A stretch of 64,000 bases of DNA, from positions 613,789-677,788 of the forward strand of contig OY843752.1 of NCBI GenBank assembly GCA_963693105.1, read 5' to 3'. Under the pieces are notes generated by a model, which saw only the letters and a list, made by a program, of their open reading frames with translations, was not told the origin of the DNA and did no database searches. Shown piece by piece: positions 1,465 through 12,638 of this stretch; position 1 is the stretch's first letter, and each line of letters starts with the position of its first letter. Made by a program: the position numbers and the translations under genes. The stretch is from an uncultured candidatus Porisulfidus sp. GTDB taxonomy: Bacteria > Pseudomonadota > Gammaproteobacteria > Poriferisulfidales > Oxydemutatoraceae.

Positions 1465-2991
1465 ATGAAGACCATGACGAGTGTTTTGCAGGAATCGGGC
1501 GCGCGGTTTGCGCGCAAGTCGCGCGCGCGCGCCTTCGGGCGGCCGGTTTTCGGCGCTCGCTCGTACCGCCGCATCCTCGCCGCTTTTGCGGCGCTGGTCG
1601 CGGCGTTGGCCGCGTTGCTGGCGGCGCAATGGAATCCCGGCGGTTACTTTCCCGCCGCCGCGGCTGCGCTGCTGTGGCTGCCGGTCGCCGTCTGTCTGGC
1701 GGCGACGGCCTGGTATCTGCGGCTGGACCTGGTCCAGCCGTCGCGTCATCTGCACACATGGCTGCAGCGGGTGCACGCCGGCGATCTGGCGGCGCGGCTG
1801 CCGAATCTGGGCGACAGCAGTTTTGCCGGCTTGTGTGACGATCTCAACACGTTCTGTACGATGCTTGAAACCCAGTCGCGCGGCGCCGAGAGCCAGCTGC
1901 AAAGACACGCCGGGCACCTGACCGAGAAAACGCGCTCGCTGGCGCTGCTCTACCGCTTCGCCGCCAGCCTCAACATGGCGCACAATCTGGACGAATTGCT
2001 TGAGCAGGTGCTGACGGGGCTGGAGGATATTTACGGCATCGGCGCCGTCGCCGTCCGTCTGCGCCTCGAGAACGGCGGCATGCAATTGCTGGCGAGTTCC
2101 GGCCTGCCGCCGGACAGTCCGCAGTTGAGCAAGTGCCTGGACGGCGACAGCGAATGGCTGCAAACGTCGGAGGCCGACCGCCGGCTGGCGGTGCCGATGA
2201 AATATCACGGCGAGACGCTCGGCGTGTGCATACTCAACCTCGACCCGGAAATTTTCGCCAACCGTTCGCAATTGAAGGAACTCTTCGCCAGTCTCAGCCG
2301 CCACCTGGGCATGGCCATCGAGAAGATGCGTCTCGACCGGGAGCGGCAGCGCCTGTCCATCGTCGAGGAGCGCACCTACCTTGCCCACGAACTGCACGAT
2401 TCACTGGCGCAGACGATTGCCGGTCTGCGTTTTCAGACCGGGGCGCTGGTCCAGACGCTGGGCGGCGGCGGCGGCAATGTCCGGCAGGTGCTGGAGCAGA
2501 TGGAGAATTCGATTGACGAGGCCAACCTCCAGGTGCGCGAATTGGTGCGCCATTTTCGCGCGCCGGTGGAGAAGGGCAGCCTGCTTCAGTCGGTGCGCGG
2601 GGTCGTCGAGCACTTTCGCCGCGACAATCCCGGCATCGAGGTGTTCTTCCAGGAAGAGTGGCCGGGCGTCGTGCTGCCGGATCCGTATGAACTGAATATT
2701 CTGAGAATCGTGCAGGAGGCGCTGATCAACGCGCACAAGCACAGCCGCGCCGATTTCGTGCGCATCCTGATGAGAGGGCGCGACGGGCGTTACCGCGTGC
2801 TGATCGAGGACAACGGTGTCGGCGTCGCCGACGCCGGGCCGTCGGAAGAACGGATCGGCGACGGGCATTTCGGCCTGGATGTCATGCGCGACCGGGCGCG
2901 GCGCATCGGCGGCGAACTGGACGTTGACAGCGCACCGGGGGAAGGCGTGCGCGTCGCGATGACTTTCAATTATCCGGGAGGCGCCGGGTAA
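1465..2991 (+). CDS. two-component sensor histidine kinase (2 TM, HAMP, GAF-like, HisKA_3 H-box ELHDSLAQ, HATPase_c)
   Basis: H-box ELHDSLAQTIAGL and C-terminal N/G-box motifs (…EALINAHKHS…GDGHFGLDVMRDRA…) typical of NarX/UhpB-class kinases. Confidence 0.8.
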   Translation: MKTMTSVLQESGARFARKSRARAFGRPVFGARSYRRILAAFAALVAALAALLAAQWNPGGYFPAAAAALLWLPVAVCLAATAWYLRLDLVQPSRHLHTWLQRVHAGDLAARLPNLGDSSFAGLCDDLNTFCTMLETQSRGAESQLQRHAGHLTEKTRSLALLYRFAASLNMAHNLDELLEQVLTGLEDIYGIGAVAVRLRLENGGMQLLASSGLPPDSPQLSKCLDGDSEWLQTSEADRRLAVPMKYHGETLGVCILNLDPEIFANRSQLKELFASLSRHLGMAIEKMRLDRERQRLSIVEERTYLAHELHDSLAQTIAGLRFQTGALVQTLGGGGGNVRQVLEQMENSIDEANLQVRELVRHFRAPVEKGSLLQSVRGVVEHFRRDNPGIEVFFQEEWPGVVLPDPYELNILRIVQEALINAHKHSRADFVRILMRGRDGRYRVLIEDNGVGVADAGPSEERIGDGHFGLDVMRDRARRIGGELDVDSAPGEGVRVAMTFNYPGGAG

Positions 2992-3644
2992 TGCCCGATT
3001 TGTCCGTTGTCATCATAGACGACCACAAACTGTTCAGGGACGGCCTCGAAGCGTTGCTGACCAGGCGCGGCATCCAGGTGGCGGCGTCGCTGGGCGAAGG
3101 CCTGCGCGGTGTCGAACTGGCGCAGAAGGCGCAGCCCGATGTGGTGCTGCTGGACGTGCGCATGCCCGACGTGGACGGCATTGAAATACTGGAGATGCTG
3201 AAAGAGCAGGGGTTCGCCAACTCCGTTGTCATGCTGACCACCAGCGAAGACTGCGCCGATCTGGCCGGCGCGATGATACGCGGCGCCAAAGGTTATCTGA
3301 TGAAGGACATCGCGCCCGACGACCTGGTGGCCGCTTTGCACAGCGTGGTGGAAGGTGAGACCGTCATTGCGCCGTCGTTGCGGGAGGAATACGAGAAACT
3401 CGATCTGAGCAAACCGCCGCCGTCGCGCTGCGGCAAACTGGTCGGCAAACTGACTCCGCGCGAGCGCGAGGTGCTGGCGCTGCTGGTCGAGGGACAGAGC
3501 AACAAGATGATCGCCAAAGTCCTTAAAATTTCCGATGGCACCGTCAAACTGCACGTCAACACCATTCTCAGGAAATTCGGCGTGCACTCGCGTGTCGAAG
3601 CCGCGATGATCGAGGTCGAACGCAATATCCACAAAGGGCGCTGA
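2991..3644 (+). CDS. NarL/FixJ-family response regulator (REC + LuxR-type HTH)
   Basis: IIDDHKLFRDGL…DVVLLDVRMPDVDG receiver domain; C-terminal LTPREREVLALLVEGQSNKMIAKVL LuxR HTH; start overlaps kinase stop. Confidence 0.85.
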   Translation: MPDLSVVIIDDHKLFRDGLEALLTRRGIQVAASLGEGLRGVELAQKAQPDVVLLDVRMPDVDGIEILEMLKEQGFANSVVMLTTSEDCADLAGAMIRGAKGYLMKDIAPDDLVAALHSVVEGETVIAPSLREEYEKLDLSKPPPSRCGKLVGKLTPREREVLALLVEGQSNKMIAKVLKISDGTVKLHVNTILRKFGVHSRVEAAMIEVERNIHKGR

Positions 3645-3669: not shown

Positions 3670-4647
3670 ATGAAACGCCGTGTCAAAATCAACTTCAAGG
3701 GGTTCTGGGACTTAAGCCTGGAAGAGAATCCTTTCTACAAACTGCTGTCGAAGCGGTTTGATCTGGAGATTTCCGACGACCCGGATTTTTTGCTTTATAC
3801 CGACTGCTATCTCGAAAAAAAGAAACACCAGAATTGCGTCCGCATCTTCTACACGGGCGAGAACACAAGGCCTGATTTTTATGATTGTGATTACGCCTTC
3901 AGCTTTGATTTGCCGGTGACTGAAAGACACTACCGCCTGCCGCTGTACTGGCTCTATGCCGACTACAACAGGCTGAAAGAGCCGAAAGACCCGGACAGGA
4001 TTCTGGCGCAGAAAAGCGGATTCTGCAGTTTTTTATATTCCCATGCGACTCCTGAAAGGGAGGACTTTTTCAAACAGATGTTGTCCTACAAGATGATAGA
4101 TTCCGGCGGCAGGTTCCTTAATACGCTGGGTTATACGGTGCCCGTCGGGAGGGCGTCGGAAGCGGATTTTATACGGCGGTATAAATTCGCCATCGCTTTT
4201 GAGAATTCCTCCCACCCGGGTTACACGACGGAAAAGATTGTAAGCGCAATGCTTGCCAATACGGTGCCCATCTACTGGGGCAATCCGCAGGTGGCGCGCG
4301 ACTTCAACCCCAAATCGTTCATCAACTGCCATGATTACGACAACTTCAGCCAGGTCATCGAGAAGGTCATCGAAATAGACAATGACGACGATTTATACAA
4401 GTCCTTCCTTTCACAACCCTGGTTGAACGGCAACCGCGGCCTGGATAGTCTGACGGAAGAAAGCCTGTTGGCCCGGTTTGAGAAGATTTTTTCCGGGCCG
4501 GGAATCATACGATACCGGAAATCTCCCCGGTTGCCCGCTCTTCCCTTGTCGGTACGCGTCAACCGGATGATTCACGACAAGCTGATGCCCTACCGGTTTT
4601 TCGCCCCCATTATTCTGAGGCTGATCCGGTGGAAGAATCGCTGGTAG
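3670..4647 (+). CDS. glycosyltransferase family 10 (alpha-1,3-fucosyltransferase-like)
   Basis: motif YKFAIAFENS matches the GT10 signature YKF(Y/x)LAFENS; overall length and architecture FutA-like; gene looks markedly AT-richer than its neighbours (by eye). Confidence 0.6.
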   Translation: MKRRVKINFKGFWDLSLEENPFYKLLSKRFDLEISDDPDFLLYTDCYLEKKKHQNCVRIFYTGENTRPDFYDCDYAFSFDLPVTERHYRLPLYWLYADYNRLKEPKDPDRILAQKSGFCSFLYSHATPEREDFFKQMLSYKMIDSGGRFLNTLGYTVPVGRASEADFIRRYKFAIAFENSSHPGYTTEKIVSAMLANTVPIYWGNPQVARDFNPKSFINCHDYDNFSQVIEKVIEIDNDDDLYKSFLSQPWLNGNRGLDSLTEESLLARFEKIFSGPGIIRYRKSPRLPALPLSVRVNRMIHDKLMPYRFFAPIILRLIRWKNRW

Positions 4648-7502: not shown

Positions 7503-8636
7503 TCAGGCGAGGGCCGCCTGAAAACGTTTCCATGCCTCGCCGTTGTCCAACTGCGCGGCGATGGCGTCGGCGGCGTTTTTCATCGAGGTGTGGCGCTGCA
7601 GGTGGGTCAGCACGATGGCGCCGCTGTAAATCAGGCAGTCGCGCGCCGCCCCCGGCTTGCCCTGCAAGGCGTCCATGCCGGCGTCGGCGGCGCTTTGCGA
7701 CAGCGCCCCGATGTCAACATCGGCGGCGATTGCATCGCCTTCCGCCGCCGCCGGCGGCAAATCGTCGGGCAGCGGCACACCGCGCGATGTCTGCCGGATT
7801 CCGATTGCGAGCGGGTCGAGTTCGCGCATCCGCTCTTCGCCCTCGCCGTGGTATTCGTGCAGTCTTGCCGGTTGCTTCAGCGACGGCGTGATGCCGCCTT
7901 CGCTGCCGCGCACGACGGCGGCGGAATCGAAACCGGCGAATTTCGCCAGGTCGAGATAAATCGGCGGATAGGCTTTGTGTACGTAGCCGGTAACCAGGTG
8001 TGTGCTGCGGCGCCCGCGTATCGGGCCGGTGAGCACCTCGACGGTCGTCAGCAGCGGGCGCTTGACAATCCGGGTGCGCAGCGATGTCAGGTCGTGCAGC
8101 GCCGGGCAGAAGCGGCTCTGATCCACGTAAGCCCAGCCGATGTCTTTCAGTTGCGCCGCCGCCTGTTGCGCCGACAGTCTGACATCCGCGCCGGCGGCGC
8201 GCAGAACCGTATGGTGGGTGGCGCCGTATTTCGGGCCGACGCACTCAAGGCCGTGGCAGAACGCGGCCACGTCGCAGGCCGCCAGCAGCGCCGGCAGAAA
8301 AGGCGCGACCGGCAGGCTGCGCAGGAAGCCGTCGTAGGGGTCGGCGATGTCCACCACCTGTTCAACGGGCGCGGTGACCGTGTCCGTCGTTTCACGAATC
8401 GCCTGCAGTACGCCCCGGTTTTCCTCGCGGGTCTCGCGCTTCATTCGAAGCGCAATCAGGAAAACCGCGGTCTGCACCGGGTCCGCTCCATTCTCCAGTA
8501 TCGACTCCATCGCCGCGCGGGCTTCCTCGAACGCAAGGTCCTTGCTGTATTCCGGGCCGGTCGCGACTTTCTGGATACAGTGGCGCAGAATCAGGCGCCC
8601 GGCGCGGCTTTCTTCAATCTCCATTCTGTTTGCCAT
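7503..8636 (-). CDS. anthranilate phosphoribosyltransferase (TrpD/glycosyl transferase family 3) paralogue
   Basis: 377 aa with TrpD-like architecture (N-terminal helical domain, …GTGGD-like region degenerate); not in a trp operon context. Confidence 0.55.
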   Translation of the reverse strand: MANRMEIEESRAGRLILRHCIQKVATGPEYSKDLAFEEARAAMESILENGADPVQTAVFLIALRMKRETREENRGVLQAIRETTDTVTAPVEQVVDIADPYDGFLRSLPVAPFLPALLAACDVAAFCHGLECVGPKYGATHHTVLRAAGADVRLSAQQAAAQLKDIGWAYVDQSRFCPALHDLTSLRTRIVKRPLLTTVEVLTGPIRGRRSTHLVTGYVHKAYPPIYLDLAKFAGFDSAAVVRGSEGGITPSLKQPARLHEYHGEGEERMRELDPLAIGIRQTSRGVPLPDDLPPAAAEGDAIAADVDIGALSQSAADAGMDALQGKPGAARDCLIYSGAIVLTHLQRHTSMKNAADAIAAQLDNGEAWKRFQAALA

Positions 8637-8637
8637 T

Positions 8638-9414
8638 TTATCGCAGTTGGTCCGACATCGTCTTGAACAATGCGGGGCCGGCGGCGAGAATGTTGCCGGA
8701 CTTCAGACAATCGCCGTCGCCGTCCGGCTCGCCGACCATGCCGCCGGCTTCGCGCACAATGACCATGCCCGCGGCGATGTCCCAGGGCCTGAGTCCGAAC
8801 TCCCAGAATCCGTCGAGCCGCGCGCAGGCGACATAGGCCAGGTCGAGCGCCGCCGCCCCCGCCCGGCGGATGCCGGCGGCCTCGCCCGCGATGCCGCGGA
8901 AGGTCCGGAGATAGGCGTCGAGGTCCTGGTCGTCGCGGTAGGGAATGCCGGTGCCGATCAGCGAGTCGTCGAGCCGCGGTCGCGACGACACCCGGATTTT
9001 GCGTTGGTTCAGGGTTGCGCCTTCGCCCTGCGCGGCCATAAACAGTTCGTTTTTGAACGGGTCGAAGATTGCGCCGACGACCGGCGCGCCCTTGTGCAGC
9101 AGCGCGATGGAAATGGCGCAATGAGGAAAGCCGTGGATGAAGTTGATGGTGCCGTCCAGGGGGTCTATGACCCACTGCCATTCACTATCCACCGCATCGT
9201 TGCCACCGCTTTCCTCGGACAGGATGGCGTGGTCCGGAAAGGCGTGTTGCAGTTCCTCGACGATCGCCCTTTCGCACTCCAGGTCCACATTGCTGACCGG
9301 GTCGTTGCGTCCCTTGTCATGCGTCCTGATTTCGTGCAGGCGTCCGGCGTGGCGCATGACAATCCGCCCCGCGTCCAGCGCCGCTTTCCCGGCAATGTTC
9401 AGGTATGGCTTCAA
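8638..9414 (-). CDS. suhB: inositol monophosphatase
   Basis: motifs …EESG…WVIDPLDGT…WD.AAG… characteristic of the IMPase family; 258 aa. Confidence 0.85.
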   Translation of the reverse strand: MKPYLNIAGKAALDAGRIVMRHAGRLHEIRTHDKGRNDPVSNVDLECERAIVEELQHAFPDHAILSEESGGNDAVDSEWQWVIDPLDGTINFIHGFPHCAISIALLHKGAPVVGAIFDPFKNELFMAAQGEGATLNQRKIRVSSRPRLDDSLIGTGIPYRDDQDLDAYLRTFRGIAGEAAGIRRAGAAALDLAYVACARLDGFWEFGLRPWDIAAGMVIVREAGGMVGEPDGDGDCLKSGNILAAGPALFKTMSDQLR

Positions 9415-9893
9415 CGGCCCCTTTTTTTGCGGCTTCCCGCTTCATAGGCAATCTGCCGTGCCAGTTCCATAAACAACTCCCGGATGACCGGCGACTTGAT
9501 TCTCCTGAACGTCCGGAGCAAATCCTCGGTGAGGAGGTTCTCAAGCTGGAGGGCGGAGACGGTACGCGGTTCGTAGTTCTCCTCCGGTTCCGTCACAACG
9601 GTGATATCCGGTTGCAACTCCCGTCGCTGCAAGCCGGCGAAGAACCACTGCAACGGCGTGTTCGTCGAAAACGCAATCAGAAAGAGCTGCGAAGCACGGA
9701 TGTTGTTGACGCCGTTCTCAAAATAGGAAATCTGCTGGCCGCCGACCCCGAGAATCCGGCCAAAATCGGCAAGCGCTTTTCCATGGTAGCTGCGCAGACA
9801 CTTGATTTGCTGCCCGATGTGGTGGTTGACCTTGCGCTGAACCGCGGAATTGGCCGGCTTCTTATATTTGTTTTTTTTGATTGTGATAGACAA
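9411..9893 (-). CDS. XRE-family HTH transcriptional regulator (probable TTG start; N-terminus uncertain)
   Basis: IGQQIKCLRSYHGKALADFGRILGVGGQQISYFENGVNNIRASQLFLIAFSTNTPLQW is a classic Cro/C1 HTH; no in-frame ATG upstream of the domain, so a TTG at 9891-9893 is the first plausible start. Confidence 0.45.
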   Translation of the reverse strand: MSITIKKNKYKKPANSAVQRKVNHHIGQQIKCLRSYHGKALADFGRILGVGGQQISYFENGVNNIRASQLFLIAFSTNTPLQWFFAGLQRRELQPDITVVTEPEENYEPRTVSALQLENLLTEDLLRTFRRIKSPVIRELFMELARQIAYEAGSRKKRGR

Positions 9894-12033
9894 TGTCGTC
9901 CTCCTTTTTTTGTTTGAGTAGTTGTTTTTTCTTGTGGTAAAGATGGTCCGCGAAAGACGCGGCCAGACCGGTGCGCCGCAGCAGCGGTATCGCCGGACGG
10001 GCGAAAGGCAGCAACGGCAACAACGCCCACGAACCATTGCGCGGCGAAGCCCGCCAGGCCAGCGATCTTTTGAAGCATTCGCCGGCTTCGCTGAAGCGTT
10101 CCAGCGCAATCATCTGCAGGCCCGCCAGGCGCCACAAGTCTCCCATCACCCGGCGGCGGATTTTTTTCGGAATGTGTCTGCGCGCACCGAACCGCTCAAG
10201 ACAGTCCTCGCGGATATGCGCCCATCTTTGCAGGTAGTCGTCGTACCTGCGGTGGAGGCGCTCGACGGCGTCTCCGTCGGTGAAGGTGACCGTGCATCGC
10301 GGCACATACAGCCATTCGCCGAGATGGGCGAGGCGCGTGAAAAGTTCGCTGTCGTGGCCGGTTGGCAGGGTTTCGTTGAAGCCGCCGAGTTCCCTGACGA
10401 AGCCGGCGCGAAACAACGTGCATGAAGCGATGCCGGCGCCTTCGGTGAAAAACCATTGCCACGGGTTTTCGGGCAGTTCGCTCTGGTCTATGAATTCCTC
10501 CGCCTGTCGCACGCCATCGGGCGCTGCAAGCGCGTAGCGTATCAGGCGGTCGGTGCTGGCCGCCACCGCGCGCGGCGCGGCGGCGAGCGCGGCGGAGGTT
10601 TTTTCGAGAAAAGACGGCGGCGGGGAATCATCGGAGTCGAGAAAATAAACCAATTCGCAGTCACCGGCTTGTGAGAAGCCATGGTTTCTCGCGGCTGCCG
10701 CTCCCCGGTTGAAGTCGTGCACCAGCAGCCGCGTCTCGAAGGGGCGCTCCGTTTGTTGCCGCCACCGGCGGACTTCTTCGGGCGTGCCGTCGTCTGAGCC
10801 ATCGTCCACGACGACGACCCGGTGAGGCGGTTGCGTCTGGGCGCCGATCCGGTCGAGCACCCGCCGAATCAGGCCGGCGCGGTTGAAGACGGGGACAATG
10901 ACGGCGATTTTCATGCGATCATCGGAGTGCGGTTGAGTCCGGCGGGCGCTTTTTTCCGCCGTTTGCCGCGGCAGTTCATCATTACGCTGTATCGCGGAAT
11001 CGGGCGTCGGCAATTTTTCGGTTTTTTGTTTGAGCAGCCGCTTTTTCTTGTGGCTGAAATGGTCCGCAAAAGTCGCGACCAGGCCGGTGCGCCGCAGCAG
11101 CGGCATGGCCGGGCGGGCCAGAGGCAGCAGTGCCAGCAGCGCCCACGAGCGGTTGCGCGGCGAGGTCCGCCAGGCCAGCGACCTTCTGAAACATTCGCCG
11201 GCCTCGCCGAAACGCTCCAGCGCAATCATCTGCAGGCCCGCCAGACACCAGGAATGTCCCATGATTTTGCAGCGGAGTTTTTTCGGGACATGCGCGCGTG
11301 CGCCGAAATGTTCAAGGCAGTCCTCGCGGACGCGGGCCCAGTCCCGCAGGTAGGCGTCGTGTCCGTGGTAGAGGTGCTTGTCGGCGTCTCCGCCGGTCAT
11401 GGTCACCGTGCATTGCGGCACATGCAGCCATTCGCCGAGATGGGCGAGGCGCGTGAAAAGTTCGCTGTCGTCGCAGGTCGGCAACGTCTCGTTGAAGCCG
11501 CCGAGTTCCCTGACGAAGCCGGCGCGAAACAACGTGCATGAAGCGATGCCGGCGCCTTCGGTGAAAAACCATTGCCACGGGTTTTCGGGCAGTTCGCTCT
11601 GGTCTATGAATTCCTCCGCCTGTCGCACGCCATCGGGCGCTGCAAGCGCGTAGCGTATCAGGCGGTCGGTGCTGGCCGCCACCGCGCGCGGCGCGGCGGC
11701 GAGCGCGGCGGAGGTTTTTTCGAGAAAAGACGGCGGCGGGCAATCATCGGAGTCGAGAAAATAAACCAATTCGCAGTCATCGGCTTGCGAAAGGCCGTGG
11801 TTCCTCGCGGCCGGCGGCCCCCGGTTGAAGTCGTGCACCAGCAGCTGCGTCTCGAAAGGGCGCTTTGTTTGTTGCCGCCACCGGCGGACTTCTTCGGGCG
11901 TACCGTCGTCTGAGCCATCGTCCACGACGACGACCCGGTGGGGCGGTTGCGTCTGGGCGCCGACATGGTCGAGCACCCGGTGAATCAGACCGGCGCGGTT
12001 GAAAACGGGGATAATGATGGCGATTTCTGGCAT
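9862..12033 (-). CDS. fused tandem-duplicated family 2 glycosyltransferase (two near-identical GT2 modules in one 723-aa ORF)
   Basis: both halves start M(P/K)IA(I/V)I(I/V)PVFNRAGLI…VVVVDDGSDDGT…LDSDD; the second module begins at Met encoded at 10915-10913 after a short linker; no stop between the modules. Confidence 0.7.
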   Translation of the reverse strand: MPEIAIIIPVFNRAGLIHRVLDHVGAQTQPPHRVVVVDDGSDDGTPEEVRRWRQQTKRPFETQLLVHDFNRGPPAARNHGLSQADDCELVYFLDSDDCPPPSFLEKTSAALAAAPRAVAASTDRLIRYALAAPDGVRQAEEFIDQSELPENPWQWFFTEGAGIASCTLFRAGFVRELGGFNETLPTCDDSELFTRLAHLGEWLHVPQCTVTMTGGDADKHLYHGHDAYLRDWARVREDCLEHFGARAHVPKKLRCKIMGHSWCLAGLQMIALERFGEAGECFRRSLAWRTSPRNRSWALLALLPLARPAMPLLRRTGLVATFADHFSHKKKRLLKQKTEKLPTPDSAIQRNDELPRQTAEKSARRTQPHSDDRMKIAVIVPVFNRAGLIRRVLDRIGAQTQPPHRVVVVDDGSDDGTPEEVRRWRQQTERPFETRLLVHDFNRGAAAARNHGFSQAGDCELVYFLDSDDSPPPSFLEKTSAALAAAPRAVAASTDRLIRYALAAPDGVRQAEEFIDQSELPENPWQWFFTEGAGIASCTLFRAGFVRELGGFNETLPTGHDSELFTRLAHLGEWLYVPRCTVTFTDGDAVERLHRRYDDYLQRWAHIREDCLERFGARRHIPKKIRRRVMGDLWRLAGLQMIALERFSEAGECFKRSLAWRASPRNGSWALLPLLPFARPAIPLLRRTGLAASFADHLYHKKKQLLKQKKEDDIVYHNQKKQI
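9862..12033. repeat. direct tandem duplication, about 1.1 kb per unit (about 9862-10915 and 10916-12033)
   Basis: the two GT2 modules are about 85-90% identical at protein level (by eye); six-frame shadow ORFs repeat with the same period. Confidence 0.7.
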
Positions 12034-12087
12034 GGATGCCTGGCAATAAAGCGATAATTCTACTTGATTTTCTGGAGGGTGGGCGGA

Positions 12088-12118
12088 TTGTTGACTAAAA
12101 TAGTCAGGTATAATATAT
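12088..12118 (+). promoter_or_regulatory. iscR promoter with IscR-type palindrome TTGACTAAAATAGTCAG overlapping -35 (TTGACT) and a -10 like TATATT
   Basis: perfect inverted repeat GACTAAAATAGTC 25-45 nt upstream of the iscR ATG; resembles type-1 IscR autoregulatory sites. Confidence 0.45.
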
Positions 12119-12140: not shown

Positions 12141-12638
12141 ATGAGATTGACGACCAAAGGACGCTATGCGGTCACGGCGATGACTGATTTGGCGCTGCAC
12201 CAGCATGAAAACGGCGGGCGACCGGTGTCGTTGTCCGACATCGCCGAACGACAGAGCATTCCGGCCGCTTATCTGGGGCGCCTGTTTGTCGGCTTGCGCA
12301 ATCACGGCCTGGTGGAGAGCCAGCGCGGGCCGGGTGGCGGTTACCGGCTGGCGAGAACCGCCGGCGAGATTTCAGTCGCCGATATGATTGCGGCCGTGGA
12401 CGAGAGAACGGACAACACCCGCTGCCGCGGACAAGTCAACTGCCAGGACAACCACAAGTGCCTGACCCACGTGCTGTGGAGTGATCTGAGCCGCCGCATC
12501 CAGAATGTGCTGTCCGATATCTGTTTGTCGGATGTCGTCTCCGATGCGCAGGTGCTCGCGGTGGCCGAGAGGCAGGACGCGATGGCGAAGAATCGCGGTG
12601 CAGCCGCCGCGGTGCAGTGGCACGAACAACCCTGCTGA
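12141..12638 (+). CDS. iscR: Fe-S cluster assembly transcriptional regulator IscR (Rrf2 family)
   Basis: [18 protein letters not shown]… Rrf2 HTH and Cys ligands (C…C…C) present. Confidence 0.9.

Follow-up and report, generated by a model that had tools for sequence, protein, structure and literature searches.

A two-module GT2 glycosyltransferase gene of an uncultured gammaproteobacterium: an old in-frame duplication with gene conversion confined to one half of the repeat

Introduction

Multi-domain glycosyltransferases (GTs) are common; how they arise and diverge is rarely visible. Two tandem GT-A domains in one chain, each with its own DxD motif, are found in the chondroitin polymerase K4CP of Escherichia coli K4 (PDB 2Z86), in the Pasteurella heparosan synthase PmHS2 (8VH7) and in human LARGE1 (7ZVJ), and the same general layout is encoded by the gene described here. 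Two tandem homologous GT domains that differ in linkage specificity also make up KpsC, the capsule-linker β-Kdo (3-deoxy-d-manno-oct-2-ulosonic acid) transferase. Gene conversion between paralogous surface-glycan or adhesin genes is known from Helicobacter pylori (futA/futB and babA/babB). A literature search for a described precedent of the present case returned nothing relevant. The gene was found in a stretch of 64,000 nucleotides (nt), referred to as the window, from an uncultured candidatus Porisulfidus sp. (Gammaproteobacteria; contig OY843752.1, positions 613,789 to 677,788), in which a single open reading frame (ORF) of 723 amino acids (aa) encodes two consecutive modules of GT family 2 (GT2).

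The gene is regarded here as probably coding for a genuine single-chain enzyme of two complete GT2 modules of the GT-A fold, joined by a disordered linker: an old duplication whose donor-binding halves are kept alike by gene conversion, and whose two active modules would use one donor, or two very similar ones, with different acceptors. The locus keeps the whole series of steps, from a single-module ancestor with an XRE-like partner gene, through a fused gene with a homogenising donor half and a diverged, conserved acceptor-side segment, to apparent reversions.

Results and Discussion

Authenticity of the fused gene

The ORF (9862–12033, minus strand; all features are collated in Table 1) contains zero internal stop codons and is matched by the Pfam profile PF00535 (Glycos_transf_2) with 178 bits (cut-off 23.3 bits, E=1.8e-52) in two stretches, one in each half. 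An earlier annotation made from the nucleotide sequence and its ORF translations alone (the sequence-only reading) had described two fused GT2 modules without an intervening stop codon, and both the translation and the Pfam matches bear this out. The direct repeats of about 1.1 kb that it reported are equally real, with a measured period of 1116 nt (372 codons), and the motifs DDGSDDGT and LDSDD are kept in both copies, which differ at TCDD versus TGHD as had been noticed. Some details needed adjustment. The modules had been called nearly identical, which overstates an identity of 81% for the protein and of 86% (codon-aligned) to 88.9% (blastn, 1009 nt) for the DNA; the methionine codon proper to module 2 is present, one base away from the position given (10914–10912, not 10915–10913); and the linker comprises 36 rather than 35 residues (aa 338–373).

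Orthologues with the same two-module layout were found in three uncultured gammaproteobacterial lineages that carry the label "Gammaproteobacteria bacterium" as metagenome-assembled genomes: P0002 (733 aa), P0003 (743 aa) and P0004 (740 aa), referred to below as P2, P3 and P4, each at 98% query coverage and 72–75% identity. The order iscR | GT – suhB – trpD-like is common to the window and these three lineages, the GT gene being divergent from iscR-iscSUA-hscBA-fdx, and the flanking proteins of the orthologous loci are only 82–85% identical to those of the window. Comparison with orthologous loci, which the sequence-only reading had suggested, thus recovers the fusion syntenically in three further lineages; together with purifying selection on both modules (see below), it supports a genuine fusion, which had been offered there as one of several possibilities.

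Assemblers are notoriously prone to errors at long direct repeats, and the sequence-only reading had considered an assembly collapse or expansion. Either one gene would have been expanded falsely, or a sequencing error would have removed the stop codon between two genes. Such an artefact is scarcely credible here. The linker is in frame in all four lineages (111, 135, 135 and 132 nt, all multiples of 3), and the recurrence of the fusion with an open linker in four lineages and many independent assemblies excludes, for practical purposes, both an assembly expansion and a stop codon lost in the window alone. In the window itself the copies differ at about 14% of their sites, and the module-specific pattern of these differences is that of the orthologues. 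The P2 gene is represented by six contigs from different metagenome assemblies, and the five that were compared differ by 0–4 nt over the gene. The exact window protein (P0001) lies on a contig of 1.48–1.83 Mb, the name of which has the style of a long-read assembler, as inferred from the name only. For annotation, the long ORF is to be taken as real, and should be neither split nor flagged as a misassembly.

Age of the duplication and gene conversion

The proteins were divided into modules and aligned codon by codon, the window gene being compared with P2 and P3. Two segments were examined separately: the N-terminal half (N-half, aligned codons 0–215) and the C-core, which extends from the TCDD/TGHD motif to WCLAG (codons 215–285). 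Between the two modules of the window about 114 of 984 aligned sites differ, and the similarity is uneven along the repeat, exceeding 93% around a perfect tract of 252 nt and falling to 67–78% in the 3′ third. The longest run of concordant polymorphic sites in the window gene (88 sites) was matched in none of 5000 permutations in a Sawyer-type test. A run of 31 sites in P3 was likewise matched in 0 of 5000 permutations; the run in P2 was without significance in the same test.

Trees of the two segments are incongruent, within-genome paralogues being closest in the N-half and orthologues in the C-core. In the N-half, both window modules cluster at 100% bootstrap; their protein identity is 93% (72–76% between the modules of the window and those of P2), and dS (synonymous divergence) is 0.13 within the genome versus 0.44–0.60 between orthologues. 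In the C-core, module 1 of the window, P2 and P3 forms one clade at 98% bootstrap, with dN (nonsynonymous divergence) of 0.06–0.16 between orthologues versus 0.20–0.25 between paralogues. Over the C-core and the tail, the two window copies diverge by dS of about 0.5. Diagnostic columns are distributed accordingly along the repeat: all 20 species-diagnostic columns, at which the pair of window modules is set apart from the pairs of P2 and P3, fall within residues 4–198, and the 9 module-diagnostic columns, at which module 1 differs from module 2 in all three genes, fall within residues 187–261 and at residue 332. The TCDD motif is common to module 1 of the window, P2 and P3.

At the level of the aligned sequences, these data show that the duplication and the in-frame fusion predate the split of this genome from at least three related gammaproteobacterial lineages. 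They also show, on the same footing, that intragenic gene conversion has repeatedly homogenised the N-half, including the DDxSxD and DxD motifs, within each genome, the 252 nt being the most recent tract in the window, and that the segment following the putative catalytic aspartate (residues ~187–261) has retained module-specific residues across species. A recent tandem duplication still awaiting divergence, as the sequence-only reading had also envisaged, would fit the high overall similarity of the modules and the perfect 252-nt tract. That reading of the repeat is very improbable nonetheless. Module-specific residues are common to species separated by dS of about 0.5 and to orthologues with flanking proteins as divergent as stated above, which makes the duplication old; beyond the converted tracts, the two copies themselves are separated by dS of about 0.5. 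The high overall similarity between the modules results from gene conversion and not from a recent duplication.

Integrity of the two modules

Family-conserved positions were defined as the 42 alignment positions with at least 90% conservation in 118 homologues. Module 2 retains all 42 and module 1 retains 41, the sole departure being the exchange of Gly for Cys187 at a position of the PTGxD motif that is Gly in 91% of the homologues, two residues before the invariant Asp189. The residues D38, D39 and S41, as well as D94, S95 and D96, are invariant in the 118 homologues. An Asp that is invariant in 100% of the homologues, at the position of the GT-A catalytic base and before the helix that follows the core sheet, corresponds to D189 and D561, and a catalytic role of these residues is putative. 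The ratio of nonsynonymous to synonymous divergence (omega) between orthologues is 0.18–0.36 for both modules and is lowest (0.18–0.25) in the diagnostic segment of module 1. Judged from conservation and substitution patterns, both modules keep the family-conserved residues and evolve under purifying selection.

An AlphaFold model of module 2 alone (mean predicted local distance difference test, pLDDT, 93; predicted template modelling score, pTM, 0.89) consists of a GT-A core (residues 1–215) and a helical subdomain. In the model of the full protein (pLDDT 85.7) both modules are folded, and residues 328–370 have pLDDT values below 50. Foldseek matched the modules to SpsA, TarS/TarP, K4CP and AvpGT at a probability of 1.0. 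By profile, motifs and predicted fold, each module is a bona fide member of the GT2/GT-A group.

Catalysis might have been lost from one of the modules, most probably module 1, which would then serve the other as a carbohydrate-binding, scaffolding or regulatory pseudo-enzyme domain, since only module 1 departs from the family-consensus Gly of the PTGxD motif, so close to the putative base. This is improbable: module 1 is otherwise intact, with its two DD motifs, its DxD motif and the invariant Asp189 all present; the purifying selection on it is equal to or stronger than that on module 2; and its donor-binding half cannot have decayed, being replaced time and again by sequence of the other module.

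Ancestral arrangement and the XRE-like gene

A search with module 2 by itself gave further single-module orthologues at 64–67% identity. The loci L090, L092 and L093 all have the order OMP – GT – XRE – suhB, where OMP denotes an outer-membrane protein and the GT gene, directly followed by the XRE gene, is a single one of 335–337 aa and TGHD type; in L092 (2.38 Mb contig) and L093 (0.79 Mb) the complete order is iscR | OMP – GT – XRE – suhB – trpD-like. By SuhB and the TrpD-like protein, the single-module genomes fall outside the clade of the window with P2, P3 and P4. The OMP in L092 (6131–7963) and L093 (6131–7933), a protein of 600–610 aa with two OMP β-barrel domains, has its gene directly before the GT gene, in the same orientation; the window lacks it, and only 107 nt separate iscR from the GT gene there.

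In the window, the XRE-like gene (9411–9893) overlaps the 3′ end of the GT gene by 32 nt, in agreement with the sequence-only reading. Its assignment to the XRE regulators holds in part: the window protein remains below the cut-off of the Pfam profile HTH_3 (PF01381; 19.0 bits against 23 bits), and the L092 orthologue passes it with 33 bits. The only homologue found in a word-indexed search was P0122 (55% identity), for which a precomputed HTH_31 match exists and the contig of which has the order OMP – GT2 (337 aa, one module, TGHD type) – XRE – suhB. The lineages P2–P4 have no XRE-like gene; there, the GT stop codon overlaps the suhB start. Because the outgroups have the order GT-XRE-suhB, the XRE-like gene is apparently an ancestral partner of the GT that was lost in some lineages.

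From the same comparisons of gene order and motif type, the TGHD of module 2 is taken to be ancestral and the TCDD of module 1 derived. The simplest account of the locus comprises three steps: an ancestor in which a single TGHD-type GT gene lay between iscR and suhB, with the XRE-like gene after it; duplication of the GT gene in tandem and its in-frame fusion, in the ancestor shared by the window lineage and P2–P4; and retention of the XRE-like gene in the window lineage, with its loss in P2–P4.

Possibly the duplication reached into the XRE gene. This is hinted at by a weak likeness between the linker peptide (KLPTPDSAIQRN, 10915–11022) and the N terminus of the XRE-like protein (KKPANSAVQRK, 9840–9893), for which the shuffling tests are marginal and inconsistent: p was 0.02 for the window linker against the window XRE 5′ end and 0.004–0.005 for P2 and P4 against L093, and most of the 16 comparisons were non-significant.

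The XRE-like stop codon TGA (9413–9411) overlaps the TTG start codon of suhB (9414–9412). A promoter and terminator scan found no minus-strand terminator-like site between GT, XRE and suhB, which is weak evidence, as the site counts are at the level of shuffled sequences. The gene overlaps and the lack of such a site suggest that the three genes may be translationally coupled and co-transcribed.

Proposed activity and glycan context

GT-A enzymes bind the nucleotide-sugar with their N-terminal half, and the region beyond the catalytic base helps to form the acceptor site. In the present gene the donor half is interchangeable between the modules and the post-catalytic segment is kept distinct, from which we infer that both modules are probably active inverting transferases with the same or a very similar nucleotide-sugar donor and different acceptors. 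One donor and different acceptors would imply two successive sugar transfers, and the protein would thus extend a cell-envelope glycan by two sugars, one after the other, on the cytoplasmic side of the inner membrane.

This glycan is most plausibly an oligosaccharide of the lipooligosaccharide/lipopolysaccharide (LOS/LPS) type, because of the content of the iscR–suhB slot in a more distant relative and of a GT10 gene near the locus. In that relative (L098, 9001–11800; contig ctg194515_28x_l, 2.05 Mb), the same slot contains the series GT2 – GT25 – GT2, in which both GT2 genes belong to the present sub-family and share 42% identity with one another and with module 2; GT25 is the LPS/LOS glycosyltransferase family (Pfam PF01755). 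The iscR–suhB slot looks like a small, variable glycosyltransferase islet.

The GT10 gene, the only other GT gene nearby, encodes an α-1,3-fucosyltransferase-like protein. It adjoins genes for a HisKA_3 histidine kinase and a LuxR-type response regulator (1465–2991 and 2991–3644, both on the plus strand), and the trio is also present in the two-module lineages P2–P4 and in L091; in P2–P4, as in the window, GT10 is ~5 kb from the GT2 gene. No GT10 gene occurs in the inspected part of L092 and L093, two outgroup loci with a single module.

The locus offers a natural experiment on the residues that may govern acceptor specificity in GT-A enzymes, with nine diagnostic positions headed by G/C187 and H/D188 beside the catalytic Asp.

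Allelic variation and weighing of the proposed activity

Cluster members of the orthologues were surveyed for alleles; their 4-kb flanks are 97–99.5% identical, and all derive from short-read assemblies. In the P2 population four forms were found: the differentiated two-module allele (L002–L006), an allele with two TGHD modules that are identical over 900 nt (L008; P0394 and P0395 are similar), one with two TCDD modules identical over 742 nt (L096) and a single-module allele (L097). The P3 population contains the two-module allele (L007) and a single-module allele (L094/L095; one JGI and one Logan assembly). In the latter gene, the flanks of which are ~99% identical, a module-1-like start switches to module 2 at about codon 38, and unequal crossing-over between the repeats would be expected to give just such a module-1 start with a module-2 body. 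A further single-module protein, P0400 (353 aa, on a 3.3-kb ENA contig), has the TGHD motif followed by a module-1-type core (NAYLRDWARVREDCLARFGARAHIPKKLRCKVMGHSWCLAG), for which one crossover is insufficient; it may have arisen by double recombination or be a chimera of short-read assembly.

The series of differentiated, homogenised and single-module forms is probably real as far as the assembled sequences go. The copy-number variation by homologous recombination that the sequence-only reading had foreseen receives some support from the single-module alleles, which exist in public data, in short-read assemblies only. The long direct repeat would make the GT gene recombinationally labile, and the locus is a candidate case of recombination-driven glycan variation.

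A bolder proposal is that the tandem repeat acts as a built-in recombination switch of surface-glycan structure, with conversion and unequal crossing-over generating alleles at appreciable frequency within one species, so that each of the four allele types (differentiated, TGHD/TGHD, TCDD/TCDD and single-module) would make a different oligosaccharide. This proposal is doubtful. If true, it would represent a module-shuffling route to glycan variation in a probably host-associated gammaproteobacterium, and would differ from phase variation through simple-sequence repeats, which is known for glycosyltransferases.

The alleles also bear on what the two modules do. Both might catalyse the same reaction, with the fusion tethering, in a single chain, the homodimer that single-module relatives would form, or doubling the number of active sites, and with the differences between the modules being nearly neutral. 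The modules are, after all, 81% identical with all conserved residues but one in common; essentially identical modules occur (P0004, P0394, P0395 and P0396), as do single-module alleles in near-identical strains, and the loss of the module-1 core seems to be tolerated. An explanation by dosage or dimerisation is still unlikely. The module-1-specific residues, including the exchange of Gly for Cys187 beside the catalytic Asp, are conserved across three lineages; omega is lowest in the diagnostic segment of module 1, which is unexpected under neutral drift; and in the window, P2 and P3 these residues have survived conversion, although the lineages have accumulated dS of about 0.5 since they separated.

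Several points weigh against the preferred view of two active modules with one donor and different acceptors. It rests on the general GT-A rule and on the mapping of the differences between the modules. The restriction of conversion to the N-half might reflect divergence of the C-core that blocks recombination, rather than selection on the C-core. The occurrence of homogenised alleles, and of alleles with one module, among close relatives suggests that a module-1-specific function is dispensable; these alleles are known from short-read metagenome assemblies only, and the P0400 mosaic could be a chimera. In the full-length model the pTM is 0.61 and the relative placement of the two modules is undefined. 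In a search of NCBIfam no equivalog reached its cut-off, and no specific product name was obtained; nor does the window have a gene for polysaccharide export or for a polymerase beside the locus.

Neighbouring features and the wider sub-family

Table 1. Features of the GT2 locus and its surroundings in the window (positions count from the first nucleotide of the window).
Feature	Position	Strand	Remarks
Two-module GT2 ORF	9862–12033	−	Stop codon 9862–9864; Pfam GT2 matches both halves
Module 1 (aa 1–337), derived TCDD type	11023–12033	−	GT-A core and helical C-terminal subdomain; fully folded in the AlphaFold model
Linker (aa 338–373), 36 aa, low complexity, predicted disordered	10915–11022	−	pLDDT <50
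Module 2 (aa 374–723), ancestral TGHD type	9865–10914	−	Met is codon 374, 10914–10912
DDGSDDGT (within VVDDGSDDGT)	11899–11922 (module 1); 10783–10806 (module 2)	−	Asp-rich nucleotide-binding motif
LDSDD, module 1 (DxD metal/donor-binding motif)	11743–11757	−	D94, S95 and D96 invariant in 118 homologues
LDSDD, module 2 (DxD motif)	10627–10641	−	From sequence and alignment
TCDD, module 1	11467–11478	−	Invariant, putative catalytic-base Asp189; derived C187/D188 before it
TGHD, module 2	10351–10362	−	Invariant Asp561; family-typical G559 before it
Perfect 252-nt tract, copy 1 (aa 98–182 of module 1)	11489–11740	−	Gene-conversion tract; permutation p<2e-4
Perfect 252-nt tract, copy 2 (module 2)	10373–10624	−	Identical to 11489–11740
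XRE-like HTH (helix-turn-helix) gene, 160 aa	9411–9893	−	TTG start 9893–9891; 32-nt overlap with the GT 3′ end
Ribosome-binding site AAGGAGG of the XRE-like gene	9900–9906	−	Inside the GT coding tail
suhB-like inositol monophosphatase gene, downstream flank	8638–9414	−	Pfam Inositol_P, E=7.9e-71; syntenic in all related loci
trpD-like gene, 377 aa, anthranilate phosphoribosyltransferase-related	7503–8636	−	Glycos_trans_3N and weak Glycos_transf_3 match
iscR (Rrf2 family), divergent upstream flank	12141–12638	+	Pfam and synteny
GT10 α-1,3-fucosyltransferase-like gene	3670–4647	+	FucT_N and Glyco_transf_10; ~5 kb from the GT2 gene

The trpD-like gene is located directly downstream of suhB in every related locus. 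An inverted repeat of 20 nt (9359–9378 and 12072–12091, 17 of 20 positions complementary) brackets the GT-XRE block, its two arms lying within the 5′ end of suhB and between iscR and the GT gene; by a rough estimate, the repeat is at about the chance level for a GC-rich region of 4 kb.

An exhaustive HMMER search of the sub-family gave 201 clusters at E≤1e-30, mostly single-module proteins of 300–340 aa. Several further proteins (P0124, P0125, P0142, P0149 and P0156) contain two matched stretches, so that fusion is recurrent in this GT2 sub-family. In P0125 (1295 aa), a whole unit composed of an N-terminal domain of ~300 aa and a GT2 module is repeated in tandem; in P0124 (682 aa), a TGHD-type module is paired with a TTED-type module that resembles the second GT2 of L098. 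An assignment of the N-terminal domain of the relatives P0005–P0007 to GT25 was dropped, as Pfam gives no GT25 match. When genome contigs were scanned with the module alignment, which yields generic GT2 patterns, the relatives among the matches listed were at most 45% and mostly ~30% identical. A scan of metagenome contigs for the family-specific motif ENPWQWFF gave 1 match only, by chance inside a folD-like gene.

Comparison with known systems

Generic, single-module inverting GT2 enzymes provide the closest structural relatives of the individual modules. SpsA (1QG8), TarS/TarP (5TZE, 6H4M), AvpGT (9JN3), CgT/GalT1 (5HEA) and PcManGT (6YV7) were matched by Foldseek at a probability of 1.0 with TM (template modelling) scores of 0.5–0.65 per module, and their Asp cluster, DxD motif and catalytic-base Asp all align with the window modules. 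The identities are only 15–23%, and their substrates are not transferable to the window protein. The helical C-terminal subdomain with the motif ECF(R/K)(R/K)SLAW is specific to the present sub-family, unlike enzymes of the SpsA type.

K4CP, PmHS2 and LARGE1 are the matches to the full-length model with the best E-values, and K4CP also matches by sequence. Superposition is poor, however, with TM scores of 0.27–0.33 and a root-mean-square deviation of ~26 Å, and the confidence in the relative placement of the domains in the window model is itself low (pTM 0.61). In these polymerases the two domains diverged anciently and use two donors to make an alternating polymer, whereas the modules of the present protein are 81% identical and have identical donor-binding segments. 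Its donor-binding halves, with a protein identity of 93% and stretches of identical DNA, argue for a single donor, as far as sequence can tell. Unlike the loci of the polymerases, that of the window is devoid of capsule or glycosaminoglycan genes, its neighbours being iscR-iscSUA-hscBA, the XRE-like gene, suhB and the trpD-like gene. The protein therefore does not demonstrably belong to the alternating-copolymer polymerases of the K4CP, PmHAS, PmHS2 and LARGE type: capsule context is lacking, the donors are probably the same and the domain arrangements, as modelled, superpose poorly.

Helicobacter pylori futA/futB and babA/babB resemble the present case in that recombination between paralogues creates alleles within a host-associated population. 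Those pairs are separate loci, whereas here donor and recipient are the two halves of one ORF and conversion is regionally confined. What lifts the gene above the ordinary multi-domain GT is this clean, regionally confined concerted evolution within one ORF, together with a possible series of alleles made by recombination.

By analogy, the protein would resemble K4CP, PmHS2 and LARGE1 in mechanism, and it most resembles internally duplicated enzymes such as KpsC. KpsC likewise has an internal GT duplication, the copies of which have different acceptor or linkage roles and perform successive transfers of the same sugar, as would be the case here. KpsC belongs to another GT family and fold, and its domains are much more diverged than the present modules; to our knowledge, no ongoing gene conversion between its domains has been reported.

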